DNA of 64,000 bases from a virus (taxonomy: Duplodnaviria > Caudoviricetes), in IMG/VR virus record IMGVR_UViG_3300025580_000012, positions 7,475-71,474 of that record. The stretch is one strand, 5' to 3'. A model generated the notes under the pieces. The model did not search any database. It saw only the letters and a list, made by a program, of their open reading frames with translations, and was not told the DNA's origin. The translations under genes and the position numbers were made by a program. Below, in pieces: positions 26,957 through 56,164 of the stretch; the first letter of the stretch is position 1; each line of letters opens with the position of its first letter.

Positions 26957-29140
26957 GTGAAGACGAGACACCTGGCCGAGATCCACGGGGCACCCTCATC
27001 GTTCGACCGGCTCATCAACTCGGAGCTGGGTCGCAAGTATCTGGGGCGGGCGCGGGCCGCCGAGGCGGCTGCCCGACAGGCCGCCCACGAGGCGGCCACC
27101 AGGCCACCCACCCCGCACGTCACGGTCGTGCGACGCAAGATCGCCGACGCGCTCGCCGCCCAGCTCGCCAACGACCCCACCCCCTGCATCTCCAAGTTCG
27201 ACGCCGCCCAGCTCGCGACCAAGATGGCGCGCGAGAACGGGCGCGACTTCGGACTGCGGCGCGCCGCCCTGACGCTGCACCGCATCTGGACGATCGACAA
27301 GGAGGGGTCGCTGTCGATCCGGGATCTCGCGGAGCTTCGGAGGCGCGCGGCCGCCGATGCGCCCAAGAGCTTGGCCGGCGTCCTGTTCGACGAAGTCCTC
27401 CCGCAGGCCAGCTACCACAGGCTGCCGATCAAGCGGCTGGCCGCGTTGGCCTCGACGATCACCACGCAAGCCGACTACGACCGCGTCATCCGGATGAACG
27501 GGCTGGACGGCAGCGACCCGATCGCTCGCCGGTCCCGCGCCTACATCCTCGCGCAGGTGAACCGACAGGCGCAGTACAGCGACGAGGAGTTGGGGGTGGC
27601 GGGCGAAGACCCGAGCGACACGATGGTGGCGCCCGAGTCCTCCGGGGACGCCTGCGAGTGGTGCGAGAAGCCTGCCGACTCCCTCCAGGAGCGATGGGTA
27701 CCGCTTCCGCACCCGGGCGGCTCGACCAAGCGGCTCTGTCAGTCGTGCAGCGAGTCGCTGGAGGCAGCCAACTTCAAGCGTTCGCGGCAGGCCGGTGACG
27801 ATGGCAATGCCGGTGAGCAGGCGTGGCACCCGGACGTCCCCGAGGACGGCCAGATCGGCGAGGACGCCGTCCACGTCGAGGCCCAGCGAGGTCTACCCAG
27901 CGCATCTGATCGCTCTGCAAGGCGGCAGGCCAAGCGGCACTACTGCGAGCAGTGCGGCGCCGACGTGACCGACGAGGAGTGTCCCCACTGGGACTACGAG
28001 GGCAAGAAGGCGGACAAGCCCAGCGAGCCCGAGTTCAAGCCGGCCCCCATCGTCCAGCAGCACGAAGCGACCGACCAGGAGGGTGTTGCCTTGCCCGACG
28101 CCGACATGACGAAGCTGTCGCGTGACCAGCGGCGCGCCCGCCTCAAGGCCGCCCTCAAGAAGGTCAGGCGGGCCATGACGGCCGAGCAGGTCCGCGCCCT
28201 CAAGGCCAACCTGTTCGACTGGATGACGAGGACGGCGGACGACTCGGCCGACGAGGAGCTGGCCGAGGACGTCGAGGATGTCGTCAACGAGCACATGACC
28301 GAGAACGCCCCCGAGGAGCTGAGCGAGGGGCACAAGCCGTGGGCCAAGAAGATGTCGCGCGCCCGCATCGAGGCCGCCATCCTGGATGGCCGGACCGTCA
28401 AGGTCGCCGGCTACGCCATCCGGCTGGCAAGCCGGAAGGGTCACGACCAGGTCGAGATGACGGCCCGCGGGGAGCCGCCGATGGCCTGGCCGCTCCGCCG
28501 GATGACGGCGGCGATCGACTACTACGCGAAGGTGGTGGAGGGGCAGGCGGACGAGGGACACACTTGTGATTCTTGCGCGCTTGTGGGGCAGGAGACGCCG
28601 GCCACCGAGTCCCGCGAGGTTGGACCCGGTGACTACCAAATGTCGTCGGGCGGTACCGCGTGGCTTTGCGACGAGTGTGTCGCCGAGCACGACAAGTCGG
28701 CGAGCCGGCACGGCCAGTTCGACCCGTCCGTCAACCAGCAACAGGACGATGCCGTCAAGCCGCCCGCCGCCAAGCACCCGCTCGACGAGGAGTCGTCCGC
28801 GAAGGACGTCGACTCCCTCGAACCCTCCAGCATCCTCGACAGCCATCCCGCCCAGGATCAGGCTGGCACGTCGGAGCCGTCCGACGACATGTCGGGCGTG
28901 AACGACGAGGAGGGGTTCGCCGACCCATCGGTCAAGCCCCACCACCCCACCACCGACCAGTCGGGCGTCTCGCTGCCCGCCACCGACCTGGGTCCCCACT
29001 CCAGCGGCGACGAGCCGGCCGCCTTCGAGGTGGACGTGTCGCCCGGCAGGTCCGCCGCGCGGGTCGATCGTTCGGCCCTCCGGGAGGCGATGCGCGGGAC
29101 CTTCCGGCACGTTCGCCCCACCGACCCCGAGAACGTCTGA
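26957..29140 (+). CDS. Large acidic putative virion/internal protein with Zn-finger modules
   Basis: RBS GGAGG; CEWC, CQSC, CEQC, CDSC, CDEC; linkers RQAQ, RQAG, RTAD. Confidence 0.75.
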   Translation: MKTRHLAEIHGAPSSFDRLINSELGRKYLGRARAAEAAARQAAHEAATRPPTPHVTVVRRKIADALAAQLANDPTPCISKFDAAQLATKMARENGRDFGLRRAALTLHRIWTIDKEGSLSIRDLAELRRRAAADAPKSLAGVLFDEVLPQASYHRLPIKRLAALASTITTQADYDRVIRMNGLDGSDPIARRSRAYILAQVNRQAQYSDEELGVAGEDPSDTMVAPESSGDACEWCEKPADSLQERWVPLPHPGGSTKRLCQSCSESLEAANFKRSRQAGDDGNAGEQAWHPDVPEDGQIGEDAVHVEAQRGLPSASDRSARRQAKRHYCEQCGADVTDEECPHWDYEGKKADKPSEPEFKPAPIVQQHEATDQEGVALPDADMTKLSRDQRRARLKAALKKVRRAMTAEQVRALKANLFDWMTRTADDSADEELAEDVEDVVNEHMTENAPEELSEGHKPWAKKMSRARIEAAILDGRTVKVAGYAIRLASRKGHDQVEMTARGEPPMAWPLRRMTAAIDYYAKVVEGQADEGHTCDSCALVGQETPATESREVGPGDYQMSSGGTAWLCDECVAEHDKSASRHGQFDPSVNQQQDDAVKPPAAKHPLDEESSAKDVDSLEPSSILDSHPAQDQAGTSEPSDDMSGVNDEEGFADPSVKPHHPTTDQSGVSLPATDLGPHSSGDEPAAFEVDVSPGRSAARVDRSALREAMRGTFRHVRPTDPENV

Positions 29141-29157
29141 GGCCCTGGGAGGTCGCG

Positions 29158-32100
29158 ATGTCGACGCCGATCCGCCGCCAAGCCCGGCTCATCACCGATG
29201 AGTCGTTCCACCAGTCCCCCGAGGCCCACCGGCAAGCCGCCCGGGCCTCCTTCCAGCACCCCACCATCGAGCAGATCGGTCGCGGGCTCGTTCGAGCCGC
29301 CATCCACGGCGACGCCTTCACGGTGGCGGCGCGAGTGGCAGGTGCCCCGCCTGTCACCCGCGAGCCCCCGCCCGATGGCTACCCCGTCGCCGACGAGCCA
29401 GCCGATGGGACCGGGCAGCCCCGCATGGCCGCGCCCGGCACGATCGAGACGTGCCGGCGGATCGTCCAGAACCACCAGCACGAAGAGGTCGACGGCGTCG
29501 TACTCGACGCCCAGACGGCCAACATGCTCGTCCAGGTGTTCGACGCTCTCTCGCCGAAGAACCAGGCCAAGTTCGAGGCGATGGACCTGGCCGAGATGGT
29601 CGATGTCGGCTGGAAGGTGGTGGAGCGGTCGAAGACGGGTCGACGGCGCGCCCAGCTCGACCAGGCGTTCGAGGAGCTGACCGGGGAGCATCAAGCTCTC
29701 CCGGAGGGCCACCAGGACCGCGTCCACGCCCGCCAAGCCCAATCGCTCGCCGACTTCCAGTACGGCGACAAGGTCAAGCTGAAGAAGCCGTTCAGTCAGT
29801 CGATGCGGTCGTCAACCTGGACGGTGGTGGGGCCGGGGGGCGACAGCATGCTGCTCCAGTCGGACGCGGGCGCGAAGATCCGGATCAACGAGTACGAGGT
29901 CGAGTACGTCAAGAAGGTGGCAGGCCAGTGCCAGTGCGGCCAGCCCGACTGCATGTGGTGCGGGCCGTCCACCAAGCAGGAGAAGGACGCCCAGACGCCT
30001 GACGAGGAGGAGGTTCTCCGTGGGCTCGGCTGGTCGGACGCCGCCATCCAGCAGATGTCCGAGCGGCAGATCGAGATCATCCTCCAGAAGCAGACGAAGA
30101 ACCCCAGGCCCGTCGGGCTCGGGGGCGGCCCCACCGGCCAACCCGACGACCTCCCGATGGCGGCCGCCCGTCAGGCCCAAGCGTTCGAGTGCTCGTCGTG
30201 CGGGTGCCCCAAGGGCCGCCACGACGACATGGGGTGCCGGGAGTGTGAGTGCTCGGCGTCCTACGGGATCACCGATGACGCCGAGTGGGAGGACCGGGAG
30301 CGTCAGGTCGACCAGGTCCCCGGCGTCGATCCCGCGCAGGAACGGGACAACCCGTTCGGCCCCCAGCACGGCAGCCGATCGGCGCAGTCGCGTTCGTGCC
30401 CGACGTGTGGGACGTCGCTCGGCCGCTACATCCCCGGCTATCACGCGGAGACTGGATCGCGCTGCACGAGCTGCGCGGAGTGCCCGGCCCGCTGGAAGGC
30501 GCGGAACGACAGCACCGGCGAATCGGAGGGGAACCTCTGCGACGGTTGCAAGTCCATCCTGGCCGACGGGCCCGGTTCCATCCTGACGGTCGAGCCGCTT
30601 GCGTCCTCCGGGAAGGACCGGTGGGACGACTGCCAGAAGTGCCGGGGGGATGGGTGCGGCGAGTGCGACTACACCGGCCTCATCGAGAAGGCCGCTCAGC
30701 AGAACCCCATCGAGCCCGAGCAGTCGGCGCCCGCCAGCCAACCGGGCGCCCCCGGTCCAGCCGATCCAGGTGGCGAGCAGGCCCTTCCCCCCGGTGAACC
30801 GCCCGTCCAGGGGGCCGAGCCGCCCGGACAGCAGCCCGGACAGCAGGGACTCGGGGAATCGAAGCGCAACCCCGCCCGCACCAAGGAGGTGTGGGACGAG
30901 GGGGGCAAGTTCTCCCGAGAGGTCGAGGCCGATGGGGTCGACGAACTCGTTCGGATCCACCGCGAGCTGAACGACATGGGGCTGACGCGTTCGCCCGACC
31001 AGCCTCAGCCGGCCGAGCAACAAGCCGCCCCCCAGCAGATGGCCCCCCAGGTCCCCGCTCCGCAGGGCCAGCCGGCCGTGCAGGCTCGGCGGGCCCAGAT
31101 GTTCGACGAGTGGGATGACGAGGGTGGGGGCGGCCAGGAAGCATGCCCCCTGTGCGACGCGCCTGTCCCGCAGTGGTCGCCGGGCACCGGGACGTGCAAC
31201 GCGTGCGGCTACGACGCCGAGGGGATGGCGGGCGTGGACGACTCGGTCGGCGGCGACCCCCTGTTCGAGGAGTACGCGACCGCCCTGGAGAAGTGCTCGG
31301 GGCCGGGATGCCCCCAGCAGGCCGACACGGGCGAAGAAGGTCCCGAGCAGGGCGACGAGTTCGGCTACAAGCCGAAGCGCAAGCAGCCCAGCGGAGCGCC
31401 GCCCGCGGGCGCGCCCGTAGGGGTCGGGACGCCCGGGCCGATGGGGGCAAGTCGGATGGCCCAGGAGGACGACGCCCCCCTCACCGAGCACGACATCGTT
31501 GCGGCTGCCCGGTGGCTCGCGCGGAAGTACGGGCTCGACAACCAGGAGGCCCGCGAGCTGGCCGGTCATCCCCGCTCCAGCGAGATCATCGCGCGGGTCG
31601 AGCGGTGGCGAGAGGGGAACGGCCTGCCCGCCCCCAACTCCCCGCTCTCCCGTGGCCGTCTGCTCGATGAGCTGCGGCGAGGTGTGAAGCAGGCCCAGCA
31701 GGAGCGCCCGTGTAGCTGTACGCACGCGAAGGCCGACCACGATGACGGCACGGGCCCGTGCAACAACCCGGACTGCTGGATGGGTTGCACCCAGTTCTTC
31801 ACGGGCCCGGAGCCCCGCCCGATCCCCGGCATGGAGGATTGGTTCAAGGACGAGCTGGGTGAGGACGGCATGGAGCAGGAGGGGCAGGCGTGGGCCGAGA
31901 CGTCCACGACGCCCATGAAGGCCGCCGACGACCACATCCCGACCCTCGAAGACGATGACGATGGCACCCCGTCGTTCTACTCGGCGTCGGTTGCGCGGAT
32001 CGCACAGGTCGACCCGAACTGCCCGGACTGCCACGGGACGGGCGCGTGCTCAGCGTGCGACGGCGGCTTCAACTACGGCGAGCCCGGAGATTTCGAGAAC

Positions 32101-33321
32101 CTTCCGGAGTGCCCGGTATGCTACGAGTCCGGTGAGTGCCAGACGTGCGGGCCGGCCGGCGCGATGGTCGTGGACGACTCGGGCTACGAGGATGAGGTAC
32201 CAGGAGGCGGCGGTCCGGTCGACGAGTCGGATGGGTCGATCGAAGCCCGCGAAGAGTACAAGCCGTACTCCAGCCCGGGCGCCCTCCAGTTCCCCGTGCC
32301 GGTCCTGTGCGAGGACTGCCGGACCAAGTTCTCGATCAACGGGCCGGACGACTGGTTCAAGTGCCCGTCGTGTGGGTCCGAACACGTCAACATGACGGAC
32401 CCGTCCCTCAAGGCGGCGTTCCGCCGGTGGCTCGTCGCCCAAAGCGGTCGCCACTGTGACGGTTGCGACGCCCTCATCGACGGTCCGGTCAAGAAGGTCC
32501 GGGACGATCTGGATCCGGGTCAGTTCCACCTCGTCTGCCCCGACTGTGCCGCGAAGGTCGAGCGGGGCGAACCCGTCGACTGGCAGCACAGCACACCAAG
32601 CGAGTGGAACTGGAAGCAGTCGGAAGCGCCGCTCGGTGGCCCCGCTCCCGTCTCGGACAAACCGACCGGTGAGGACGTGTTCGACGACGAGGTGTTCGAG
32701 CAGGTGGCCGCCTGGTACGACTCGATCGACGACGAGAAGTTCAAGCTGAAGATGAAGGAGAAGGACAAGGGCAAGGCCGAGCCCTCCGAGTCGAACGATG
32801 ACGAGCACGTCGCCCGGATGGCTCAAGCTCAGGACGAGGGCGAGTGCCGCGTTTGTGGTGCCTACCCGAAGCCTCTCGACGAGAAGGGCCGGTGTCCTGT
32901 TTGTGCAGAGGCGGAGAGTACGGGTCTCGTGGATGTGACGCCGTCCGGCTACCCACACAGGCGGCGTTCGAGCGATCGTCGCCGCGCCCAACCGATCGGC
33001 ATGCCTCCGGCAGCGGCCGGCATCACGTTCGACAAGTCGAACGAGCGGTCCGAGGGCGACCGGGTCGTCTGGGATCTGTCCTGGGAGCCCGAGTCGCTCG
33101 CCATGCTATCGGGGTCGGGCATCGAGCAGCAGATCCGCTCGTGGGTCCTGCGGGACGTGTCGAACGAGAAGGACACCAACCAGCCCGGCACCAAGAACTG
33201 GGGGACGATTGCTGACGTGACCATCGAAGACATCGACGCGGATGCGGGCATCGCAACCGTCTCGTTCATGTCGAGCGAGCAGGCGAGCCCGCAAGTCGCG
33301 CCCGCCGAGGCGACCGAGTAG
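29158..33321 (+). CDS. Mosaic polyprotein-like virion protein (about 1387 aa) with many Zn-finger modules
   Basis: RBS GGAGG then ATG at 29158; 12 [RK]xAQ linkers; more than 15 CxxC pairs; the ORF-track start at 28660 is an upstream shadow extension. Confidence 0.8.
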   Translation: MSTPIRRQARLITDESFHQSPEAHRQAARASFQHPTIEQIGRGLVRAAIHGDAFTVAARVAGAPPVTREPPPDGYPVADEPADGTGQPRMAAPGTIETCRRIVQNHQHEEVDGVVLDAQTANMLVQVFDALSPKNQAKFEAMDLAEMVDVGWKVVERSKTGRRRAQLDQAFEELTGEHQALPEGHQDRVHARQAQSLADFQYGDKVKLKKPFSQSMRSSTWTVVGPGGDSMLLQSDAGAKIRINEYEVEYVKKVAGQCQCGQPDCMWCGPSTKQEKDAQTPDEEEVLRGLGWSDAAIQQMSERQIEIILQKQTKNPRPVGLGGGPTGQPDDLPMAAARQAQAFECSSCGCPKGRHDDMGCRECECSASYGITDDAEWEDRERQVDQVPGVDPAQERDNPFGPQHGSRSAQSRSCPTCGTSLGRYIPGYHAETGSRCTSCAECPARWKARNDSTGESEGNLCDGCKSILADGPGSILTVEPLASSGKDRWDDCQKCRGDGCGECDYTGLIEKAAQQNPIEPEQSAPASQPGAPGPADPGGEQALPPGEPPVQGAEPPGQQPGQQGLGESKRNPARTKEVWDEGGKFSREVEADGVDELVRIHRELNDMGLTRSPDQPQPAEQQAAPQQMAPQVPAPQGQPAVQARRAQMFDEWDDEGGGGQEACPLCDAPVPQWSPGTGTCNACGYDAEGMAGVDDSVGGDPLFEEYATALEKCSGPGCPQQADTGEEGPEQGDEFGYKPKRKQPSGAPPAGAPVGVGTPGPMGASRMAQEDDAPLTEHDIVAAARWLARKYGLDNQEARELAGHPRSSEIIARVERWREGNGLPAPNSPLSRGRLLDELRRGVKQAQQERPCSCTHAKADHDDGTGPCNNPDCWMGCTQFFTGPEPRPIPGMEDWFKDELGEDGMEQEGQAWAETSTTPMKAADDHIPTLEDDDDGTPSFYSASVARIAQVDPNCPDCHGTGACSACDGGFNYGEPGDFENLPECPVCYESGECQTCGPAGAMVVDDSGYEDEVPGGGGPVDESDGSIEAREEYKPYSSPGALQFPVPVLCEDCRTKFSINGPDDWFKCPSCGSEHVNMTDPSLKAAFRRWLVAQSGRHCDGCDALIDGPVKKVRDDLDPGQFHLVCPDCAAKVERGEPVDWQHSTPSEWNWKQSEAPLGGPAPVSDKPTGEDVFDDEVFEQVAAWYDSIDDEKFKLKMKEKDKGKAEPSESNDDEHVARMAQAQDEGECRVCGAYPKPLDEKGRCPVCAEAESTGLVDVTPSGYPHRRRSSDRRRAQPIGMPPAAAGITFDKSNERSEGDRVVWDLSWEPESLAMLSGSGIEQQIRSWVLRDVSNEKDTNQPGTKNWGTIADVTIEDIDADAGIATVSFMSSEQASPQVAPAEATE

Positions 33322-33331
33322 GAGAGGAACG

Positions 33332-33733: not shown

Positions 33734-33737
33734 GACG

Positions 33738-34628
33738 GTGGCGACCGAAAAGGCGATCGTCAACGTCAGCCAGGCGATCGTGTCGCTCGCGCAGGGTCGC
33801 CTCATGCCTGGCGGCATCTTCCGGGTGGCCGACTACTTCCGGCGCGACGAAGACGTCCGCTCGGACGTGACGCTCCAGAAGTTCCTGCGGGCCGGCTACG
33901 TCTCCATCCAGGACATCGACTTCCAGGCGCTCGCCCAGGCCCGCGAGGCCGTCCACCAGGCCGACCTCGACCGGGCCGCCGAGTTGGCTGGCCAGGCGGA
34001 CGCCGAACGGGCCCGCCGGGCCGCCCAGGAGGCCGCCCAGCAGCACGCCAGCCTCGTGGCCGAGGGGAAGGCGCTGGCCGCCAGGGAGGCCCAGGTAGCC
34101 GCCCAGGCCGTCCAGGAGGCTGCCCCGTCCGCCCCGCCCCCCGACAACCTCGATGTCCTGTTCGAGACGTCTCGCAAGCAGCGGATCGCCCTCAAGCAGG
34201 CGGAGCGCGAACGGGCCGTCGAGGCCCCCACCGCCGGCCCCCGCGAGACCAGCGAGGACCGGATGGTTTCGCCCGAAGACCTGCTCGACATGCACAAGGA
34301 GGCGCAGGCCGCCCCGCCGGTCGAGCCCCTGACGGAGCGGGGGCTGGTCGGGTTCCAGGGCGGGTTCCAGGAGGAAGACCTCACTCCCGTCGAGGTCCCC
34401 GTCCCACACCCGACCCCCTTGCCGGCCGTCCCGGAGGCCCTTCGGGACACCCCGGTCGCCCCCGAGGTCTTCACCCTCGATGACCTGACGGACGACCAGC
34501 TCCGTCGGGTCGCCGTCGTGTTCGAGGTGAAGGGGGCGAAGAAGGCGAAGCGGGCCGTCCTCCTCAAGGCCATCGAGGCGCTCGGCCTCAACGAATCCCA
34601 GCTCCGCGAGATCCTCGCCGAGGAGTAG
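33738..34628 (+). CDS. Hypothetical protein with coiled coil and acidic Pro-rich region
   Basis: GC3-rich ORF; N-terminal NVSQAIVSL..L.PGG pattern. Confidence 0.7.
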   Translation: MATEKAIVNVSQAIVSLAQGRLMPGGIFRVADYFRRDEDVRSDVTLQKFLRAGYVSIQDIDFQALAQAREAVHQADLDRAAELAGQADAERARRAAQEAAQQHASLVAEGKALAAREAQVAAQAVQEAAPSAPPPDNLDVLFETSRKQRIALKQAERERAVEAPTAGPRETSEDRMVSPEDLLDMHKEAQAAPPVEPLTERGLVGFQGGFQEEDLTPVEVPVPHPTPLPAVPEALRDTPVAPEVFTLDDLTDDQLRRVAVVFEVKGAKKAKRAVLLKAIEALGLNESQLREILAEE

Positions 34629-34632
34629 CGCC

Positions 34633-37257
34633 ATGCCAGTCGATCCGCGCAAGCCCTTCCTCGCCGATCCGGACGTTGCGGGTCGGCTGGCCCGTCGGCT
34701 GGCCCACCGGGCCGACCTCGGCGTGACCGCCCAGGCGGAGGTCGCGTGCGACGTGTGCGGCACGGAGATCCCGTACGGCGAGGAGGTCGTGGAGGGGGGA
34801 CCTCCCCAGCGCGACCGCCGCTACTACCACGAGAAGTGTCGGCCGGCTGCCTTCGAGGAAGAGTGGCCAGGCGCCAAGAAGTGGCGAAACGCGGGCAGGA
34901 CGGCCCAGTCGTGGGCGCGGCCGAGCGACACGGCCCACACGGTCGTCTGGTTCTACACGGCTGAGTCGATCAAGCCGACCACCGAGGTGACGGCTGAGGT
35001 GGTGGTCAGCCCGATCAAGCGGGCCCAGGGGCTCCAGGGGCGAGAGCGACTCCACCCCGCGACCGGCATGCTGTTCCTCCAGCCGGGCGGGCCGGTCGAG
35101 CGACCCGAGCGCTACCACATGGGGTCGGTCGCGTTCCCGATCGACATCGTCTTCCTCCGACGGACCGGCGAGATCGGCCGCATCATCCACGACATTCAGC
35201 CGGGCTCGAAGGGGACGTGGGGCTACCCCACCACCGCGGCCGTCATCGAGTTGGTCGGGGGGTTCTGCCGGGCGCACGGCATCCGCGAGGGCGACCGGGT
35301 CGGATTCGGCAAGGTGGGGCGCGTAGCGGCCGCCCGACATACAAGCGGGGCGACCGCTACAACCACCCGTCGAGCTGAGGCGTTCCGGGCGCTCCGGTGC
35401 CCCGCGTGCGGGACGAATCGCGCGGTCCAGGCGGCCGGGCAGACGTGGGGGTCGGCCGAGATGGCCGGCAAGATGGCGGAGGCGGGCGAGCGGACGGCTC
35501 GATGCCTCGGGTGCGGGTACGAGGGGTCGATCGCCGCCTTCGATACCCCCCTGCCGACCGAGTACCGCATGAGGGCTGGTCGGACTGCGCAGGCATCCTG
35601 CCCGAAGTGTCAGTCGACCGAGTTTTCTCGGGATTACGGCTGCGCGTCGTGCGGGTGGACTGGCCATTGCCAGGCGTGCGGGGGCACCGATAGCGGGGCA
35701 CACGGGAAATGCACCTCGTGCAAAGGGACGGGCTACTCGACCGAGATGCGGAAGCTCCGGGGCCTCTGCTCCAACTGCAACGGGTACGGCTGCGCGCTGT
35801 GCGGGGGAACGGGCGAGGCAAACCCCCGTCAGGCTTCCCGCCGGACCGCCTGGGGGGAGACGTGCGAGTGCGGTCACATGCGCGACCAGCACCAGGACCG
35901 CGAGCGTCAGCCCGGGCAGTCCTGCCTGGTGACGGGGTGCGGGTGCGGTGGGTGGAAGAAGGCGGCCCAGCTCGAACCCGGCCAGGCGATGTGCCGGTCG
36001 TGCGGGTGGTTCGGCCCTCGTGACGAGTTCGTCGACGTCTCGGACTACGGGCTCGGCGACGATGGTGGGATGGATGGGTTGCCCAAGCCCATGTGCCCGG
36101 ATTGCGGCGAGACGTCCATCAAGTTCGCCTCCCGCCGGGCCCTCATCACCTGCGGGTACTGCTACAGCCGCGCCCGCTGCGAGGGCAAGCCGTACGAGAC
36201 GATGGGCGATTCCTCGTGGAAGATGGACCCGGGGCTGTTCTGCTGCGACGAGTGCAAGCAGCACATCGAGGGCTGCCGGTACTGCCAAGAGGCTCGTGGG
36301 AATCCGACCTTCCGGTCGCTCGACGAGTTGCGCCAGCAGGTTGCCCGCCGGGCCCAGACCACGTGTCCTGACTGCGATGGCAAGGGATACACCGATGCGT
36401 CTTACTGCCCTCGGCGGTGCAACGGGGAGGATCCGAACTGCCCTGATTGCGATGGCAAGGGCTACGCTGATGCGGCCTACTGCCGGACGTGCGACACGTC
36501 CGGCCGCGCCGCTCAGATGTCCCCCATCCCCTCCGTCCCCTCCGCCAAGCCCGCCGAGGACTCGGGCAAGAAGAAGGGGAACGGGGAGGAGTGCGACGGG
36601 TGCGGCGTGTCAGCCCCCGGCCTCCTCCAGCCCGTCACGGACGGCATCTACGAGCCCAACCCAGCCGAGCCGGGCGCCGCCATCCAGCGGTTCCTCTGCC
36701 CCGACTGCATGGCGGTCGATCTGGACGAGGACGATGGGGACTGGGGTGGGATGGAGGAGGTCGCCCAGATGGTCGAGCCGCCCCCCGCCTGCAAGGCGTG
36801 CGGGCGGGATGCGACCGACGGGTACGAGATGCCCGGGCAAGGCATGCTCTGCCCGGATTGCTCGGACGACTACGTCGACAGCCAAGGGGGCGCCGAGCCG
36901 TTCGACCAAGAGGCCGACACCGTCGACTACATCGAGGAGGACGACGACCCCGAGTGGATCGAGCAGGATGACCACTTCGTCCAGTACCCGCCCGGCGAGG
37001 ACGAGCGGGATGCCGCCGGCACGTCCCACGACCTCCTCCGCAGCCTGACGGAAGCGAGTCGGAAGACGGCCACGTGGACGTTCCCGACCTACGAGGAGGC
37101 GTTCCAGTACGCCCAGCAGCAAGCGAACGCGACCGGCATCTCGATGGGGTTGGAGAAGCCGACCGCGTACGAGAAGGGCTGGAACGTCTCGTTCCTCCCG
37201 AAGCCCGCGAACCGGTCGGGCTGGGAGCTGCGTTGCCAAGTCGTGGATCCGATGTGA
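34633..37257 (+). CDS. Mosaic protein: DUF192 domain plus DnaJ-type CxxCxGxG and other zinc fingers
   Basis: RAQGLQGRERL...GMLF...HMGSVAFPIDIVFL...VIELVGG....GIREGDRV (DUF192); CTSCKGTG, CSNCNGYG, CALCGGTG, CPDCDGKG x2. Confidence 0.82.
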   Translation: MPVDPRKPFLADPDVAGRLARRLAHRADLGVTAQAEVACDVCGTEIPYGEEVVEGGPPQRDRRYYHEKCRPAAFEEEWPGAKKWRNAGRTAQSWARPSDTAHTVVWFYTAESIKPTTEVTAEVVVSPIKRAQGLQGRERLHPATGMLFLQPGGPVERPERYHMGSVAFPIDIVFLRRTGEIGRIIHDIQPGSKGTWGYPTTAAVIELVGGFCRAHGIREGDRVGFGKVGRVAAARHTSGATATTTRRAEAFRALRCPACGTNRAVQAAGQTWGSAEMAGKMAEAGERTARCLGCGYEGSIAAFDTPLPTEYRMRAGRTAQASCPKCQSTEFSRDYGCASCGWTGHCQACGGTDSGAHGKCTSCKGTGYSTEMRKLRGLCSNCNGYGCALCGGTGEANPRQASRRTAWGETCECGHMRDQHQDRERQPGQSCLVTGCGCGGWKKAAQLEPGQAMCRSCGWFGPRDEFVDVSDYGLGDDGGMDGLPKPMCPDCGETSIKFASRRALITCGYCYSRARCEGKPYETMGDSSWKMDPGLFCCDECKQHIEGCRYCQEARGNPTFRSLDELRQQVARRAQTTCPDCDGKGYTDASYCPRRCNGEDPNCPDCDGKGYADAAYCRTCDTSGRAAQMSPIPSVPSAKPAEDSGKKKGNGEECDGCGVSAPGLLQPVTDGIYEPNPAEPGAAIQRFLCPDCMAVDLDEDDGDWGGMEEVAQMVEPPPACKACGRDATDGYEMPGQGMLCPDCSDDYVDSQGGAEPFDQEADTVDYIEEDDDPEWIEQDDHFVQYPPGEDERDAAGTSHDLLRSLTEASRKTATWTFPTYEEAFQYAQQQANATGISMGLEKPTAYEKGWNVSFLPKPANRSGWELRCQVVDPM
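36364..36474 (+). repeat. 75-bp-period coding direct repeat (CPDCDGKGY x2)
   Basis: TGTCCTGACTGCGATGGCAAGGGATACACCGATGCG at 36364 vs TGCCCTGATTGCGATGGCAAGGGCTACGCTGATGCG at 36439. Confidence 0.85.
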
Positions 37258-37267
37258 GGGGCGCGGT

Positions 37268-46463: not shown

Positions 46464-46533
46464 CCCGCTGTCCTGATTCCTGCCTGACCCTTTTCCCTCG
46501 TTTCCGCTACCCTCATACCCGAGAGGTCCAGCC

Positions 46534-49500
46534 ATGACCGCCCAGAACCCGTTCGGCCCGGAAGCCCGGGCACGCCGCCGGCTCGCCCGCATCCAGCGCT
46601 TTGCAGGCGCGTTCGCCACGTCTCCAACGCTTCCGGGCAACGACAGCGAGGACGGCCCTCTCGACCGCCGACGTCTTCCGACCGCCGCCATCAAGCTGGC
46701 CAACGAATTCCTTGGCCAATTCACGTGGCCCATCATCCCGACCCTCGTCTACCGGGGCATCCGGACGGCCACCCGCGACGAGCAGACGCCCGCCATCGAG
46801 GCGGACGCCCACGTCATTCTGTCGGCCCAGATCGTCACGCTGACGGGGTGCCGGAGGGAAGTGGACGTCCCCGTGGTCGTCCGGCGGGGCGAGCTGCTCG
46901 AACCGTCCGTCATGATCGTCGATGGCGTCCCCCGCATCATCTCCCAGTCGCTCGTCGACGAGGTCGTCCGCCAGGGGACGTTCAAGCAGAAGGTCGACCC
47001 ACGGGGCGGCATGTTCGCCCCTCCCCTCGACCGCGAGGGGTACGACGCGTTCGTCGACCTCGACGAGGCGTTCAAGATCCAGGACCGCTACTCTCGCGGG
47101 CTCTACAGCGTGGCGGGACGGCGGACCGCCCAGGAGAAGCCCTACCGGGAGAAGCCGTTCCGCCTGGGTGACCGCGTGACGGTCGACGGCGACGAAGCTG
47201 TCGTCAAGGAGTGCTACCCGGATGGGTCGTCCTCCTACATGTTCCCCCACTGCAAGGTCGACTTCATCGACGGCGACAGGAACGTGGCCGTTCCGCTCGA
47301 TCGCGTGCAGAAGAAGGCGGGCAAGACGGCCCAGTCCCAGCTCGACGAGCAGACCATCCACATCCTCCAGCAGCTCGTCCAGTTCGGTCCGTGGACACCG
47401 CGGGGACCTGGTGAGGCGATCGGTCCCGAGTACCTCCAGCCGTTGGTCGACCAGGGGCTCGTCGAGGTTGCGGGCAAGACTGTGACGATCACGGATGCGG
47501 GTCGGGCGGCCGTCGAGGGGCAGGCCAGCCTGTTGGCCGCCCGGATGGCTCGCGGGGATGTCCAGGGCCGCTGCAAGGTGTGCGGCTACATGGCGGCCGA
47601 GCCGGAGTTCGGTGAGCCGCCCGCGTGCCCCGCGTGCCAGTCGCCCGAGATCGGGTGGGGCATGCAGGCCCAGCGGTCCGACCGGGACGAACCCGCGTGT
47701 CCACAGTGCGGTGGCTGGTTGGAAGGGGGTCGGCGGCCGGACGGCAAGGACTGCCCGCGGTGCGGCGAGTTCGTCCGGAACGAAGACATCAAGCAATGGT
47801 CGCCAGACACTAAGTACCCGGCCAGCGACGCCCCCGGCTTCGAGGACGCGCCCGACTGGGATGACGTTCGGCCGCGCACCGGGCAGTCGTCGTTGGGCGA
47901 CCCGAAGATCCGGACGGCCGGGGGCTACGAGGAGGACGAGATCGCCCTCCTGGAAGCCATGCCGGTCGAGCAGTTGGTGTTGGTGCTGTCCGAGTGGCAG
48001 CGCATGAAGGACCCGCAGGCCGCCGAGTTCATCGAGACGATCGAAGACATCCTGAAGTCGAAGGGGTACCAGCCTGGACACAAGGACGCCAGTAGGACGG
48101 CCCAGCGGTACGAGCCGGGCGCCCGCGTGAAGGTGTCGGGCGATCCCGCTCGCGTGCTGGAGCAGGTCCATGAGCCTACCGGGAACGGCGCGTGGGACGG
48201 GAGCTACCGGGTCGAGTGGCTCGATGGCCATACCGATGTCGTCCCCGAATCGAAGCTGTCGGTCGACCGGGACCAAGAGACCCTCCGGCACGTCGAGGCG
48301 TGGAGCCCCGACCCCGAGTTCAACCCCGACTACGATTTCAAGTGTCCGGCTTGCCAGAAGGTCTACTGGTGGGACGGGGAGGAGAGTGGCTCGACCGTTC
48401 CGGCCGATGGGGTGTGCTCGTGTGGCGAGCAGCTCCGGGGGGAAGACGGCGAGTTGTTCAAGGGGGCACAGTCCAGCTCGATCCCCAAGCCCGATCCCAT
48501 GTACGGGACCAACGAGGCGTGGCAGCAGTATTACGAGCGGGTCCGCGAGCAGGAGGCGAGGCAGGTCGAGTGCGAGTCGTGCGGGGAGAAGGGGGAGTGG
48601 CCTCTGTCGGGTTCGGACCTCCGCCTCTGTCCCGAGTGCGTGAACGACGAGATCGACATCCGGCACCCAGAGCCGGCTGCCGCGCCCGACGATGACGACG
48701 TCCCCGACGACATCGATCAACTCGTCATGGAGCCGAACGTGACATGTGCGTGCGGGTCGAGCGCGTTCGAGGTCGGGACGGACGGCCTCGTGTGCGCGGC
48801 GTGCGGGGCGCCCATGGCCAAGCAAGCACAGGCGGGTGGTTCGTGGCCGATGCCAGGCGAGGACGTCCTCCAGACGCCGACGGGCCGGTGGCAGTGGATC
48901 TTCGATGCCGATACCAAGCGGGCCCGCTACTACCACCTGGAGTGCGATGGGTACGCCGGGCAGGATGGTGACTGCGAGCTGTGCGGGGCGCCGAGCCCGT
49001 CGAGCCCGAGGTACGTGACGACCGGCAAGGGGACGTATGGGCCGCGGTCGGGCGCCCGCGAAGGCGACGGCATGCCCGCCGAGCACAACCGGTCGCGCCG
49101 GGAAGACGACTTCTTGGCCGGCCAGGCCGTCACGTTCTCGCGGTCGTTCCGCGAGCGGACCCGTGGCGGCCCCTCCTACCTGGTCGAGTCGGGTGCGTCC
49201 GGCCGGGTCATCCGGGACGTCTTCGAGGACGGTACCTCCTTCGAGGTCGAGGTGGATGGCCGCAAGGTCGTGGTGCCGCGCGAAACCTTGAAGCGGTCGG
49301 GCAGGCGCGCCGACGTCATTGAGTACCCGCCGGATGGCCGGGAGTTCCGGTGCCGGAAGTGTGGCGCCACCCACCCGGTCAACCGGCTGGTGTCGGCGGA
49401 GATCGTTGACGGCCCCACGACGGTCGCGTGCCCCGCGTGCTACTCAGTCGACCTCGACCGCATTGCTCGCGCGACCGTCGACCAGGTCGTTCGTGAAGTC

Positions 49501-49635
49501 GAAGCCCTCAAGCAGGAGGGCTACGACGACATCGACGCCATGTTGGCCGTCCACCAGAAGTATCCCGACCTCGCCGACGCCGTCATGCAGGCCGCCCGCG
49601 ACAAGGGTCTCCTCGACCTCGATGGTGAGCAATGA
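46534..49635 (+). CDS. Mosaic polyprotein-like virion protein (1033 aa) with SH3-like and Zn-finger modules
   Basis: Linkers RRTAQ, KTAQ, RTAQ, KGAQ, KQAQ; F/Y.(L/P)G(D/A)RV.V SH3-like modules; many CxxC. Confidence 0.8.
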   Translation: MTAQNPFGPEARARRRLARIQRFAGAFATSPTLPGNDSEDGPLDRRRLPTAAIKLANEFLGQFTWPIIPTLVYRGIRTATRDEQTPAIEADAHVILSAQIVTLTGCRREVDVPVVVRRGELLEPSVMIVDGVPRIISQSLVDEVVRQGTFKQKVDPRGGMFAPPLDREGYDAFVDLDEAFKIQDRYSRGLYSVAGRRTAQEKPYREKPFRLGDRVTVDGDEAVVKECYPDGSSSYMFPHCKVDFIDGDRNVAVPLDRVQKKAGKTAQSQLDEQTIHILQQLVQFGPWTPRGPGEAIGPEYLQPLVDQGLVEVAGKTVTITDAGRAAVEGQASLLAARMARGDVQGRCKVCGYMAAEPEFGEPPACPACQSPEIGWGMQAQRSDRDEPACPQCGGWLEGGRRPDGKDCPRCGEFVRNEDIKQWSPDTKYPASDAPGFEDAPDWDDVRPRTGQSSLGDPKIRTAGGYEEDEIALLEAMPVEQLVLVLSEWQRMKDPQAAEFIETIEDILKSKGYQPGHKDASRTAQRYEPGARVKVSGDPARVLEQVHEPTGNGAWDGSYRVEWLDGHTDVVPESKLSVDRDQETLRHVEAWSPDPEFNPDYDFKCPACQKVYWWDGEESGSTVPADGVCSCGEQLRGEDGELFKGAQSSSIPKPDPMYGTNEAWQQYYERVREQEARQVECESCGEKGEWPLSGSDLRLCPECVNDEIDIRHPEPAAAPDDDDVPDDIDQLVMEPNVTCACGSSAFEVGTDGLVCAACGAPMAKQAQAGGSWPMPGEDVLQTPTGRWQWIFDADTKRARYYHLECDGYAGQDGDCELCGAPSPSSPRYVTTGKGTYGPRSGAREGDGMPAEHNRSRREDDFLAGQAVTFSRSFRERTRGGPSYLVESGASGRVIRDVFEDGTSFEVEVDGRKVVVPRETLKRSGRRADVIEYPPDGREFRCRKCGATHPVNRLVSAEIVDGPTTVACPACYSVDLDRIARATVDQVVREVEALKQEGYDDIDAMLAVHQKYPDLADAVMQAARDKGLLDLDGEQ

Positions 49636-50078: not shown

Positions 50079-50088
50079 GGAGTACGTG

Positions 50089-50973: not shown

Positions 50974-51347
50974 TGGACGATCGCGTCGAGCTGAAGTTCG
51001 GACAGGACGGCTACCAGACCGCCCCCGATCCGACCATGAAGGGGCCGGCCGCCTCGGTCGATCGCCGCAAGCGACCCGACCGCCTCTGCATGAAGGCCAA
51101 GTCCCTCCAAGTCGTCTCGGATGGGACGCTCGCCGGGACAGCCGTGTTCGTCGACGGCGTGCAGGTCGGCGGGCTCGTCCGATTCGAGATGGTCGCGCAG
51201 AAGGGCTACCGGCGCGTCACCGCCGTGGTCGACATGAACTACGACAAGGAGGCGATCGAGGAGCACGGCGAGCTGGCCGGCCAAGAGGTCCGCGATGACT
51301 CGGGCAACCCCATGACCATCACGGTCGACGTGTTCCGGAGGGAGTGA
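50973..51347 (+). CDS. Hypothetical protein
   Basis: TGATG overlaps at both ends. Confidence 0.65.
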   Translation: MDDRVELKFGQDGYQTAPDPTMKGPAASVDRRKRPDRLCMKAKSLQVVSDGTLAGTAVFVDGVQVGGLVRFEMVAQKGYRRVTAVVDMNYDKEAIEEHGELAGQEVRDDSGNPMTITVDVFRRE

Positions 51348-53581
51348 TGGCGGGGTCGGCCAAGAAGAAGGAAGCGATCGACCTTCAGGGGTCGCTCGCC
51401 TTCCTGGCGCGTGGTGGCCGCGAGCTACCCGCCGACCCACCTGTCTACGACCTCCCCCGGGCCGCCAACTTGATCGAGTGGACGACGGATCCCCGGTTCC
51501 TCGACTTCTCGTTGGCGTTCGGTCACTGGGGCCAGTACCAGTTCCTCCGCGACATCGCCCAGCTCCGCTGCCCCATCTGCAACCCGTTCGACAAGGACTC
51601 GGAGGGTCCAGGTCGCTGCTGGGGGAAGACGCGCATGGAGCTGGAGGGGGAGGTGTTGCTGGAGTGGTCGGCCGACATCAACGGGGACGTCTGCCCGAAG
51701 TGCCGGGGGACGCGCGACGAGTTCGTGCGGGACGGCCTCCTCTACGACTACAACACGGCGATCGTGTGCGTGGGGGCTCGCGCGGGCAAGTCGGCGACGG
51801 CTGGTGTGCTGGCCACCTACCTGGAGCACGTCGTCTACTCGATCGCCCAGTTCGACCGTGACCGCCTCGCCCGTCAGCTCGGCCAGGCGCCCGGCACCCG
51901 GTTCGACATCGCGTTCGTCGCGTCAACGGGCAAGCAGGCTGAGAAAACGATCTGGGACTGGTACACGAATTTCCGGGAGCGTGGCCCCTGGATCCGCCGG
52001 TACGTCAAGCGGGTCAAGGAGCTGGAGGCCGCCCAACCGCGCATCGGGCTCAAGCGCTGGGAGTACAGCGAGGAAGGCAAGACGGCCATCCGCAACGGCC
52101 TCATCCGCGTCGAACTCGACAGCCTGACGAGCAACTCGGGCGGTATGGCAGGCGCGACCCGCTTGGCCGCCTTCGTCGACGAGTTGGCCCGGTTCGATCT
52201 CACCGAGTCGAAGCGGGGGGCCGACGAGGTCTGGCGGGTCTTGTCCATGTCGCTCAAGACGATCCGGCGGGCTGCATCGCTCTCGGCCGGCGCCTTCCCT
52301 CCCTACCTGTTCGGCATGAAGATCGCGACCTCTTCGCCCATGTCCGGCGACGACAAGATGATGTCGCTCCTGTCCAAGCAGGACGTCCTCGACCGCATGC
52401 TCGCCCTCCACCTGGCCACCTGGGAGTTCAACCCCTTCATGCCCCGGGAAGCGTTCGCCGAGGAGTACGCCGAGGACCCCATCCAGGCCGAGCGCGATTT
52501 CGGGGCCAACCCGCCTCTCACGGAGACCCCCCTCATCGAGGACGTCCCCCGGTTCGCCAAGTCGATCGAGCCGTCCCTGTCGCCTACCACGCTGTTCCGC
52601 ACGATCTACCCGGAGGATGCGCTGGGCCGCCAGTACATCGGCATCGAGTTCGAGGACTCGATCATCTCGCCCGAGATGCCCCGGTTCGTCTGCTTCGACG
52701 CGGGCGCTTCGTTCGACTCGTTTGCGGGGGCGATGGCGCATCCCGCGTGGGTGGAGATCGCGCCCGACCCGAACGACCAGGAGGCGAAGGGGCGGCCGCG
52801 CCGCATCCTGGTCGTCGTGTACGACTGGATCGCCCGCATCCTCCCGACCGAGCGGCCCAAGAGGACGGTTTGGTTCGACTCGGTCGTCAAGATGGTCGAG
52901 CGGATCAAGGACTGCTTCCGCCTCACCCAGGTCTGCTTCGACCGCTGGCAGTCCGAGGCGCTCATCCAGGACATCCGGGCGTTCGGCGTCCAGTCCGAAC
53001 AAGCCAGCATCGTCGCCAAAGACTTCGTCGCGTTCAAGTCGGAGTGTTACGGGGGCAAAGTCAAGCTCCTCCCGCCCGCCCGCCTGTCGGATGGCCGCTA
53101 CGAGCTGGAGTTCACGCAAACGGGCCAACTCGTCATGAACCGGACGCCGATCGAAATGTCGGCCGCGGGGGTCGGGATCTACGAGCTGGTCAAGCTGTCG
53201 CGGGACGAATCGCTCAAGAAGGTGTTCAACCCGATGAAGGGGAAGAAGCGGGGGTACGATTCCGACGACGTCGCCCAGGTGATCGTCGGGGTCCATCGGA
53301 TGATCCACCAGGCGTTCGCCGACGACCCTGCCAAGACGGGCCAAAAGGATCGGCTCCGCCGCGAGCAGATGGGGGGCGAGCAGTGGGGCGGGGGTGGCAT
53401 CGCCCACACGATGTCGGGCTGGGCGGTCCAGTCGCCCGGCCGTCCCGCCGGGTCATTCCAGTCGAAGCGGGGCGGCATGCCGGGATACACGAAGGGCGAC
53501 ACGTTCATCACGCCGGACGGCCAGGCGAGCGGTCCCCATCAGTTCGCTGAGCGGGGCATCATCCGGATGAAGAGGTGGTAG
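51347..53581 (+). CDS. terL: Terminase large subunit
   Basis: Walker A VGARAGKS; Walker B AAFVDE; coupling motif ATSSP; nuclease CFDAGASFDSF, DRWQS, DSDDVAQ. Confidence 0.9.
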   Translation: MAGSAKKKEAIDLQGSLAFLARGGRELPADPPVYDLPRAANLIEWTTDPRFLDFSLAFGHWGQYQFLRDIAQLRCPICNPFDKDSEGPGRCWGKTRMELEGEVLLEWSADINGDVCPKCRGTRDEFVRDGLLYDYNTAIVCVGARAGKSATAGVLATYLEHVVYSIAQFDRDRLARQLGQAPGTRFDIAFVASTGKQAEKTIWDWYTNFRERGPWIRRYVKRVKELEAAQPRIGLKRWEYSEEGKTAIRNGLIRVELDSLTSNSGGMAGATRLAAFVDELARFDLTESKRGADEVWRVLSMSLKTIRRAASLSAGAFPPYLFGMKIATSSPMSGDDKMMSLLSKQDVLDRMLALHLATWEFNPFMPREAFAEEYAEDPIQAERDFGANPPLTETPLIEDVPRFAKSIEPSLSPTTLFRTIYPEDALGRQYIGIEFEDSIISPEMPRFVCFDAGASFDSFAGAMAHPAWVEIAPDPNDQEAKGRPRRILVVVYDWIARILPTERPKRTVWFDSVVKMVERIKDCFRLTQVCFDRWQSEALIQDIRAFGVQSEQASIVAKDFVAFKSECYGGKVKLLPPARLSDGRYELEFTQTGQLVMNRTPIEMSAAGVGIYELVKLSRDESLKKVFNPMKGKKRGYDSDDVAQVIVGVHRMIHQAFADDPAKTGQKDRLRREQMGGEQWGGGGIAHTMSGWAVQSPGRPAGSFQSKRGGMPGYTKGDTFITPDGQASGPHQFAERGIIRMKRW

Positions 53582-53590
53582 GAGGACGCG

Positions 53591-56164
53591 ATGGATAGGC
53601 TGCTCGGCTTGGTTGGTGTGGCGGACGTGGGCGGCACCCCCGTCCACGTCCAGGTGGTTGGCGAGACGGATGCGGGTCGCCTGCTGGTCCAGCGGGTCGG
53701 CCGGCAAGAGCCCGTCACCCTCATCGAGCGGACCGCATTCGTCGCCGAGCTGGCCATCGCGCCCGAACCCCTCAGCGACGGCGTCAGGAGCGCCGCCCTC
53801 GACCTCAGCCAGGCGATCGAGCGGGCCAAGGCGATGGCGGGCACGGACCACCTGCTCGACCAGGAGGACTACCAGATCCTCCACGACGAGCTGGAGGAGA
53901 CGGACCAGTACCCGTTCGCCGCCGCGCTCGTCGAGCATGGCGTGCAGGTCAGGACCGGGGGCCGCCAGGCCGTCCAGGACGTCGTGACCGACCCGCACGG
54001 CGAGGCGGACGGGCTCGCTCTCCACCCCGAGCCCTGGGCGTCGCCCGGGGGCGCCGGGGAAGCGGCGGGCGCAGGAATGGACGGGCAGGACGCCCCCGCG
54101 TTCGCCCCGTGGGATCCGGGCGGCCAGGGGGACGGCATCTCGAACGAAGAGGCCCACACGGAGCACGAGTTCCCGGGCGTCAGGACGCTCGCCCAGCGGG
54201 ACTACGGGCAGGCGTCGAACGCGACCAACGAGACGATGCCATCCCACATCTGGACCCATGAAGTCTCGATGGCGGCGATTCATGCGGGTGTGCCGGCTGC
54301 GTTCGTCGACAAGATGCGCGATCGAATCTCTCGGGCGTATGGGGCGGGTGAGGCCGTATGGATGGTGGCGGACGAACTGGTCTTCCGTTGGCAGCGATCT
54401 GAGATCGAAGACCGCTCCGACCACGAGATGGACTTCTTGCGGCAAACGCATCCGAAGGAAGGGGTGCGCGGCCGGTCCGCCCAGTTCCAGCCCGGCCAGG
54501 TCATCTGCCAGGATTGCGGCAAGACCTTCGACCAGGCCGACGCGGTGGTGCCGGGCCATTGCCCCGCGTGTGCCGACCACGACTACCCGTTCGTCGAGGA
54601 CGCTCGCAAGCGCGGACAGGTCAATCGCCTGACCGTCGACCCCGAGGATCTCGCCGCCGACTACAAGGCGCGGGGGTTGGAGCGGACACGCGCGTGGGGC
54701 GAGTTCGTCAAGGACCGGGCCCTTCAGCCCGAGATGGACGCCAAGCAGTTCTACGCCATCTTCGACCAGGTCTCGCCTGCCCGCCTGCCCGGCCCCTCGT
54801 ACGAGACGGCCGCCGACTTCCAGGCCACCCACCTCGACACCCTGACGGACACGAAGGTGCAGATCACTCCCACGGACTTCGGCCACAAGCTCGTGTGGGA
54901 AGGGGGGATGACGGGGTCGAACCCTGGGCCCCTTGACGAGGGCCGGTTCAAGCCGATCGCGCGCAAGCGCGCCGGTCACCCGGCCGTCGACCAGGCCCGC
55001 CGCATCTTCCAGGTCGAGCTGGCCGGCGCCGAGGAGCAGCTTGGCCTCGGCCTCGACCACGAGGTGCGGACGGGTGGGACGGAGAACGTCGAAGAGGTCT
55101 GCTTCGAGTGCGGGGTGCCGTGGAACCCGGCCAGCGGTTTCGTGGCGGGCCCGCAGGACACCCCGTTCTGCAAGGGGTGCTCGGATGCGGCAGCCCGGTG
55201 GGTAGAGCGGTGGACCCAATCGAAGGGGCGGCGTAAGGGTCCCCCCTACTTCTACGATCACAACACCCCCGTCGACACCACCGACTTGCCCCTTGATGAC
55301 GGCAAGGAAGCGGCGGAGCCCTGCAAGGAATACTGCGGCGAGCCCGACTGCCCGGCCCTTGACCTCCCCGACCACGAAGCCGAGATGGGGTGGTCGGGCT
55401 CCGAGTTGGTCGACGAGCGGTGGGCGTCCGTCTCCATGATGGACATCGCGAAGCACCCGCTCGGCCGCCCCCACCACGACCTGGAGAAGGACTCGGATCT
55501 CGGGACGCCATCGGGCCGGGAGCGCGGCCTCAACCCCTCGGTCCACGAGCAGGCCAACCAGGCGTACGGGTCGGACAACCAGTTCGAGGATGCCGACCTC
55601 CACATGGGTCGGGTGCGTACGCCCGGCCGCCTCAACCTGTCCGACTACTTCGGGCCGGTCGGCAAGTGCCTGGCGTGCGGGGCGATGGCGACCAAGGAAG
55701 CGTTCAAGATGGTGGACGGCTGGGAACGGTGCCCGGCATGCCGGAGCGACCGGGTCGGCTTCATCGATGCGGGCAAGGGGATGCGTGACCTCGTCGCCGG
55801 TGAGGCGGACGCGTACGAGACGGCCCCGCCGCTGTCCAAGGGGGACGGGGAGGGCGTGTTCGACGACCAGCCTGACGGAGTCACGATTCAGCCGCACGCG
55901 AGCGCGGGGCGGTCGGCCCAGGGGATCGGCATCTCGGGTGACGCGTTCGAGGACCCGGGCGCCGGTGAACCGCTCGACCCCCACGACGAAGACGCCGCCC
56001 CCGACCCCAAGGACTTCGGCGTGATGGTGTCGATGCGGCAGCTCGCCCAGGGGGTCGACAACCGCTCGTCCGACCCGAACGTCCAGACCGATGTAGACGA
56101 GCAGCAGGGCGACCGGGGGATCGCCCGTCCGCCGGCCGTCGAGGACGTCCGGTACCCGAGGTGA
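53591..56164 (+). CDS. Mosaic acidic virion protein with Zn-finger modules
   Basis: RBS GGAGG; RSAQ x2; CQDC..CPAC, CFEC..CKGC, CLAC..CPAC. Confidence 0.78.
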   Translation: MDRLLGLVGVADVGGTPVHVQVVGETDAGRLLVQRVGRQEPVTLIERTAFVAELAIAPEPLSDGVRSAALDLSQAIERAKAMAGTDHLLDQEDYQILHDELEETDQYPFAAALVEHGVQVRTGGRQAVQDVVTDPHGEADGLALHPEPWASPGGAGEAAGAGMDGQDAPAFAPWDPGGQGDGISNEEAHTEHEFPGVRTLAQRDYGQASNATNETMPSHIWTHEVSMAAIHAGVPAAFVDKMRDRISRAYGAGEAVWMVADELVFRWQRSEIEDRSDHEMDFLRQTHPKEGVRGRSAQFQPGQVICQDCGKTFDQADAVVPGHCPACADHDYPFVEDARKRGQVNRLTVDPEDLAADYKARGLERTRAWGEFVKDRALQPEMDAKQFYAIFDQVSPARLPGPSYETAADFQATHLDTLTDTKVQITPTDFGHKLVWEGGMTGSNPGPLDEGRFKPIARKRAGHPAVDQARRIFQVELAGAEEQLGLGLDHEVRTGGTENVEEVCFECGVPWNPASGFVAGPQDTPFCKGCSDAAARWVERWTQSKGRRKGPPYFYDHNTPVDTTDLPLDDGKEAAEPCKEYCGEPDCPALDLPDHEAEMGWSGSELVDERWASVSMMDIAKHPLGRPHHDLEKDSDLGTPSGRERGLNPSVHEQANQAYGSDNQFEDADLHMGRVRTPGRLNLSDYFGPVGKCLACGAMATKEAFKMVDGWERCPACRSDRVGFIDAGKGMRDLVAGEADAYETAPPLSKGDGEGVFDDQPDGVTIQPHASAGRSAQGIGISGDAFEDPGAGEPLDPHDEDAAPDPKDFGVMVSMRQLAQGVDNRSSDPNVQTDVDEQQGDRGIARPPAVEDVRYPR

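Follow-up and report, generated by a model that had tools for sequence, protein, structure and literature searches.

The window analyzed here covers 64 kb of one 71.5-kb virus contig (IMG/VR record IMGVR_UViG_3300025580_000012; ~67% guanine-plus-cytosine content, or GC), the plus strand of which holds all real genes and the right half of which encodes a large terminase, a portal, and large proteins related by a recurrent tetrapeptide, [RK]-x-A-Q. We found that this motif is real and selected at the protein level, that it delimits evolutionary modules, and that it is common to sites in the head-maturation protease and the portal of related phages. We favor, with modest confidence, the view that [RK]-x-A-Q is the recognition site of the head-maturation protease of this phage clade, which would belong to the phage G gp19/PHROG 18299 family. 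The four main motif-bearing proteins, each named after the nucleotide (nt) at which its gene begins and listed with the nt starts of its sites, are as follows.

29158 to 33321, plus strand: the 29158 protein, 1,387 amino acids (aa), acidic and multi-module, with no Pfam or PHROG match; 12 [RK]xAQ sites, scored against shuffles, at nt 29644, 29731, 29983, 30169, 30376, 30688, 31087, 31453, 31687, 31996, 32815, and 32980
34633 to 37257, plus strand: the 34633 protein, 874 aa, with DUF192 (aa 119 to 224) followed by zinc-ribbon modules; six sites, at nt 34897, 35017, 35581, 35959, 36346, and 36505
46534 to 49635, plus strand: the 46534 protein, 1,033 aa; five sites, at nt 47122, 47323, 48094, 48460, and 48820
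53591 to 56164, plus strand: the 53591 protein, 857 aa, acidic, encoded between terminase and portal; two RSAQ sites, at nt 54473 and 55910, weak when taken alone

Expected counts of [RK]xAQ were obtained from within-protein shuffles. By this measure, the motif was strongly overrepresented in 29158 (12 vs 0.85), 34633 (6 vs 0.44), and 46534 (5 vs 0.56) and weakly in 53591 (2 vs 0.45; p ~0.07). Pooled, these four proteins carry 25 sites versus 2.3 expected (Poisson p ~8e-18), whereas the remaining window genes, also pooled, are at chance level, with 6 sites versus 8.5 expected plus a single RDAQ in the DnaX-like gene (nt 3792). The original prediction, which had drawn attention to the motif in this sequence, had cited that RDAQ, an RRTAQ in the portal (found at nt 63590 to 63601, in the 62210 open reading frame [ORF]), and several strings in which the motif abuts a Cys pair; all of these are present, namely, RTAQ-ASCPKC and RRAQ-TTCPDC in 34633 and RIAQ-VDPNCPDC, RSAQ-SRSCPTC, and RQAQ-AFECSSC in 29158. 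It had also counted the 26957 and 38568 proteins among those with repeated motifs; this stood for 29158, 34633, 46534, and, weakly, 53591, but 26957 (1 vs 0.56) and the giant 38568 protein (1 vs 1.56) are at chance under the same shuffles. These two and one further motif-containing protein are as follows.

26957 to 29140, plus strand: the 26957 protein, 727 aa, with one RQAQ (nt 27563); its G001 ortholog has 2 sites versus 0.58 expected
33738 to 34628, plus strand: the 33738 protein, 296 aa, Ala/Gln-rich, with RAAQ, REAQ, and KEAQ (3 vs 0.42)
38568 to 46160, plus strand: the giant 38568 polyvalent protein, 2,530 aa (LPD1, zinc ribbon, HNH, RelA/SpoT), with one RRAQ (nt 43098)

The giant 38568 protein is not part of the motif system; where it has its RRAQ, locus L001 of the closest relative reads RHAQ. 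The three sites of 33738 are probably compositional, not functional; its ortholog in the closest relative has no [RK]xAQ site.

As a guard against cherry-picking, all a.bc, ab.c, and abc tripeptide patterns were enumerated, and R.AQ (20 vs 2.2) and K.AQ (9 vs 1.05) ranked directly behind CxxC patterns. Among the 44 AQ dipeptides of five proteins (33738 included), 28 have R or K two residues upstream, against a background R+K frequency of 0.106 (p ~4e-17). The specificity is sharp, as variants with xGQ, xAN, xAS, or other first residues occur at chance in the window; the relaxed motifs [RK]xGQ, xAN, and xAS, which had been suggested by aligned portal and 46534 variants, were dropped because they are not enriched there. 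The two positions immediately upstream of the R/K favor small residues. Codons at the sites vary synonymously, which argues for a protein-level signal and rules out a DNA-level repeat as the origin of the motif. The earlier claim that the motif often sits immediately before a CxxC module applies to 8 of the 25 sites, compared to 0.18 for random positions, but not to the remaining sites.

Comparisons within and between genomes place the motif at module boundaries. In 46534, a conserved N-domain (aa 1 to 196; nt 46534 to 47121) extends up to the first RTAQ and is followed by a variable array of SH3-like and zinc-ribbon units. The closest relative, IMGVR_UViG_3300031576_000060 (loci L001 and L093), has a terminase 81% identical to that of the window, and its orthologs are mosaic. 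Its 46534-like protein contains an extra module of ~100 aa flanked by KTAQ on both sides where the window has a single RTAQ, and another of its blocks matches residues 409 to 517 of the window's 29158 protein, i.e., the segment between sites 407 and 511. A variant, RTGQ, at nt 47875 of the window's 46534 gene aligns with RRAQ in L001. The 29158 ortholog of this relative (1,643 aa) carries 12 sites versus 1.3 expected, with homology that is block-wise, and P0003 (985 aa), a divergent 34633 homolog, has 9 exact sites and extra modules that each end in GRRAQ, GKVAQ, or KKWAQ. When the internal ends of BLAST homology blocks in 21 such proteins were considered, 51 of 283 lay no more than 8 residues from a site, compared to 23.9 ± 4.8 for randomly placed sites and a maximum of 41 in 2,000 random trials; the commonest offsets were 0 to +1 after the Q. 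Modules of unrelated types come after the motif, which persists even as its flanking sequences diverge. If every site of 29158 were cut, 13 segments of 29 to 273 aa would result, 8 of them Cys-rich. One 34633 site, at aa 129, falls within DUF192 and could be a coincidence. The 46534 N-domain is modeled (predicted local distance difference test [pLDDT], 85) with a cystatin/NTF2-like fold; structure comparison of this domain returned only generic cystatin/NTF2-like matches (Z < 8), none of them diagnostic of function.

The spread of the motif was examined in 80 IMG/VR loci around related terminases. The terminase and portal of the window are as follows.

51344 to 53581, plus strand: large terminase subunit (phrog_17415, 2.7e-43), with no [RK]xAQ, serving as a non-virion internal control
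62210 to 64000, plus strand: portal (phrog_16240, 3e-84), truncated by the contig end

Among deposited phages, Virus Rctr197k comes closest (38% terminase identity), with jumbo phages such as PaBG next. Among the 80 loci, enrichment was seen where terminase identity is at least ~37%, whatever the GC, and was gone in more distant phages; the enriched relatives span 38 to 67% GC, and those at 38 to 52% GC include L007 (41% GC; 18 vs 3.4) and L008 (12 vs 2.2). Within this near clade, the sites are concentrated in the protease fusion described below (46 vs 9.4), the 46534 family (26 vs 5.1), DUF192 proteins (23 vs 3.7), and the 53591 family (8 vs 1.0), with little or no enrichment in the terminase (16 vs 11.8), the major capsid protein (MCP; 7 vs 4.8), or the portal as a whole (9 vs 7.4). 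An exhaustive search with the 46534 protein yielded 385 cluster representatives (E ≤ 0.001). The best-scoring 150 carry 204 sites versus 42.9 expected, the first site commonly falling at residue 190 to 206, the end of the shared N-domain. For the 29158 protein, tblastn and a pattern scan of cultured phages and IMG/VR gave no match. A metagenome scan returned only the already-known contig and a 1-kb fragment.

A DUF192 domain is found in a head-region protein across the clade (window nt 34897 to 35592; L006, L007, L008, and L009). Four near relatives have [RK]xAQ after this domain and then a conserved E.FP.YPRKDINP peptide, and the DUF192 proteins of distant relatives still hold the motif (6 vs 0.6). 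DUF192 was considered as a candidate protease and dropped, as the literature offered no support.

The portal gene of near relatives is followed by one that matches PHROG 18299, "head maturation protease" (1e-37); homologs of its product are annotated as prohead core protease, and the next genes encode an Ig-like protein and phrog_2522, the major head protein. The near-relative protease is fused to a coiled-coil-like extension of 550 to 1,100 aa. Twelve of 18 such fusions have a site at aa 297 to 372, the end of the protease domain, and this junction matches the size of the protease in distant relatives, where it stands alone (250 to 310 aa) without the motif. The extension carries up to 6 sites; several fusions have in common a second conserved site, IVGP-[RK]xAQ-VL, and the Rctr197k fusion retains both. 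Residues H117 and S203 of the protease, candidates for the His...Ser catalytic pair of T4 gp21/assemblin-like serine prohead proteases, are invariant among relatives. Its domain in relatives (e.g., L007:16644-17573) also has zinc-ribbon-like Cys clusters between H117 and S203 and just after S203; C213, C216, and C227 are invariant, and Cys clusters in this place are unusual for prohead proteases.

In the window's portal, the conserved fold encloses the RTAQ at nt 63590, and an N-terminal variant, RFGQ, occurs at nt 62438. Five of the closest relatives have [RK]xAQ at this conserved N-terminal position, just before a Gly-rich stretch, and portals of sister lineages have KQAN, RTAN, or RTAS there. 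The concentration of the motif in the relatives' protease fusion and at the portal N terminus, with the terminase not enriched, lends independent support to the suggestion of the original prediction that [RK]-x-A-Q is a prohead-protease site. That suggestion gained from the protease fusions, the junction sites, and the five portal N termini, but it did not hold for 26957 and 38568, in which the motif is at chance. The closest relative's portal (L001:18556-22236) contains a ~410-aa insertion with LAGLIDADG_3 and Intein_splicing domains, i.e., an intein, which is absent from the window portal.

After the closest relative's portal lies a 1,033-aa ORF (L092:442-3543, minus strand) with a sub-threshold match to Phage_Mu_F (23 bits vs a cutoff of 29.6) and an RRAQ at aa 167; following CRCVGAGAEVC...VGDRVLD, its sequence resembles the start of a Hint/intein domain. 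In the window's subclade, a MuF-like gene and not a protease gene appears to follow the portal.

We propose that 29158, 34633, 46534, and probably 53591, all of them large, acidic, and Cys-rich, are made as precursors, each consisting of an N-terminal domain with small modules strung behind it (zinc ribbons, SH3-like units, and DUF192). The precursors would be incorporated into the procapsid, after which cleavage at the joints would yield ~29 pieces of roughly 30 to 480 residues, the cut falling either after the Q or between A and Q. This protease would also release itself from its scaffold-like tail and shorten the portal at its N terminus. As for the fate of the pieces, dozens of zinc-ribbon mini-proteins might stay in the capsid and be injected with the DNA as diversifiable effectors, with [RK]xAQ acting as a universal adaptor for moving modules; we put this forward tentatively, consider it rather unlikely, and rate it below cleavage by the head protease. 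The enzyme effectors that the original prediction had placed among the modules did not materialize, as Pfam and PHROGs detect only DUF192 and zinc ribbons, and no enzyme domains, in 29158, 34633, 46534, and 53591.

Several observations weigh against cleavage by the head protease. The window contig is without a protease gene and ends inside the portal gene, nor is a protease gene present in the 3.5 kb that follow the portal of the closest relative; the link therefore rests on phages with ~37 to 44% terminase identity. The protease domain profile has no sequence match in Pfam or PDB, so the family assignment rests on PHROG 18299 and the annotations of homologs. The MCP N termini of relatives show no consistent [RK]xAQ. 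The 46534 family has no member in cultured phages, the AlphaFold model of full-length 34633 (mean pLDDT, 31) leaves domain boundaries unreadable, and the dip in the hydrophobicity profile at the sites is small. The counts in orthologs depend on one another; the terminase and MCP act as controls for this.

The four proteins are very acidic (net charges of −100, −27, −53, and −68 for 29158, 34633, 46534, and 53591, respectively), and no domains are recognizable in them beyond DUF192 and zinc ribbons, so that a scaffold or core role must be taken seriously as an alternative to the injection of effectors. The head protease would still cut the motif, but the small acidic pieces would be cleared from the capsid before DNA entry, and no effector would be delivered. 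Such a strong negative charge is about as compatible with fragmentation and expulsion as with the injection of effectors. The scaffold-like extension of the protease itself bears the same sites, and propeptide fragments are generally expected to exit the head (PMC10052503). Scaffolds, however, are usually helical and conserved, whereas here we see folded zinc ribbons, SH3-like units, and DUF192, and the rapid turnover of modules and their shuffling between proteins are more typical of conflict or cargo proteins; we regard a scaffold or core role as quite possible, if not the expected outcome.

Other accounts do without the head protease. The motif could be an uncleaved inter-module joint, such as a peptide for docking or capping that attaches to the surface of the capsid, the portal, or a chaperone and was duplicated along with the modules. 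Some modules are indeed paralogous, e.g., the SH3-like units after RTAQ in 46534 and 29158; yet duplication with modules sits poorly with a motif that precedes unrelated module types and outlasts its flanks, and both the protease/extension junction and the position before the Gly-rich portal stretch are typical of cut sites, which leaves an uncleaved joint improbable. We find it more improbable still that a different protease cuts the motif, either the zincin-like peptidase region that adjoins LPD1 in the 38568 protein or a protease of the host. Embedded metallopeptidases have been predicted to process polyvalent proteins (PMC5512222) and LPD1 is present in 38568, but the giant protein shows no motif enrichment of its own (1 vs 1.56), and relatives carry the motif at the portal N terminus and within the extension of the head protease itself. 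An explanation by chance, by composition, or by a repeat or recombination signal in the DNA would draw on the high GC, which makes Arg-, Ala-, and Gln-rich linkers common, and on the compositional look of the 33738 sites. This last account has a negligible probability given the pooled Poisson p of ~8e-18, the 28 of 44 AQ dipeptides with R/K at −2, codons that differ between sites, and enrichment of the same motif in relatives of 38 to 41% GC; for 29158, 34633, and 46534, chance is already refuted.

Cleavage at [RK]-x-A-Q by the head protease would have close parallels in known phages. SPN3US gp245 cuts the MCP, portal, ejection proteins, and itself at A-X-E, with propeptides of 111 to 254 residues, and protease and portal are classic prohead-protease substrates in SPN3US and phiKZ (PMC10052503). 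As with T4 gp21 (L/I-x-E), phiKZ gp175, and SPN3US gp245 (A-X-E), whose substrates include internal, ejection, and inner-body proteins, one short motif occurs, in relatives of the window phage, in the C-terminal part of the protease, at the portal N terminus, and in several abundant non-shell head-region proteins; the ~90 to 300 residues that precede the first site are comparable in length to the SPN3US propeptides, and several sites occur per protein. Unlike the motifs of these three phages, [RK]-x-A-Q contains no Glu, and up to 12 sites per protein are distributed along the whole chain and not confined to a propeptide. The predicted pieces would mainly be zinc-ribbon mini-modules, and no site turned up in the MCP.

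The motif-rich proteins also resemble the polyvalent proteins of phages and conjugative elements (PMC5512222), which are large multi-module phage proteins near head genes, mosaic in makeup and with predicted proteolytic release of modules. The giant 38568 protein is a typical example by virtue of its LPD1, HNH, and RelA/SpoT domains, yet it is without motif enrichment, whereas the motif-rich proteins, unlike polyvalent proteins, have no domains of disparate biochemical activity detectable by Pfam or PHROGs. The survey of polyvalent proteins by Iyer, Burroughs, Anand, de Souza, and Aravind (2017) reports no recurrent linker motif (PMC5512222).

The best cultured-phage match to the clade protease is gp19 of Bacillus phage G (32% identity, 2e-16). 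This protein is rich in [RK]xA (10 vs 3.4), and the N terminus of the phage G portal (gp14) reads KMA-SPSVGMG at the position of the relatives' RLAQ-SFGMGG. Unlike the window clade, phage G shows no AQ requirement, and [RK]xAQ is at chance. The likeness hints at an [RK]-x-A core in common, possibly with cleavage after Ala. Assemblin cuts at A|S, which cleavage after a small residue (Ala) in this clade would parallel. Fusion of the near-relative protease to a long extension, mostly with a site at the junction, recalls the protease-scaffold fusions lambda C/Nu3, P2 gpO, and herpesvirus UL26/UL26.5, but the extension here, at 550 to 1,100 aa with up to 6 sites, is much longer than in those systems.

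Processing of internal head proteins by prohead proteases is well established, and the present case extends a known principle and does not introduce a new one. If the proposal is correct, phage G-type head proteases would use a new cleavage code, basic-x-Ala-Gln, in place of the Glu-based codes of T4 and phiKZ, and capsid proteases would process whole chains of swappable mini-domains and not N-terminal propeptides alone. The motif would then provide a simple sequence handle for recognizing capsid cargo among uncultured large phages and for predicting the boundaries of mature proteins, and the zinc-ribbon fragments would amount to a large, as yet unexploited source of mini-proteins that are candidates for host takeover or anti-defence.

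The left half of the window is devoted to replication and recombination and encodes a family A DNA polymerase, the DnaX-like clamp loader, RecA, a Mre11/Rad50-like pair, and a trigger-factor-like protein. Upstream of the giant polyvalent gene (window nt 37268 to 38577), an HNH endonuclease gene (37903 to 38577) separates a LigT-like 2H phosphoesterase from it, whereas in the closest relative (L001:50-4729) the phosphoesterase is fused in frame to the N terminus of the giant protein, with no HNH gene between them. Three otherwise different window proteins (20029 to 20769, 20805 to 22151, and 58074 to 61142) have in common an N-terminal domain of ~80 aa, which is also present in L001 and Rctr197k homologs; one of the three matches a tail-protein PHROG.

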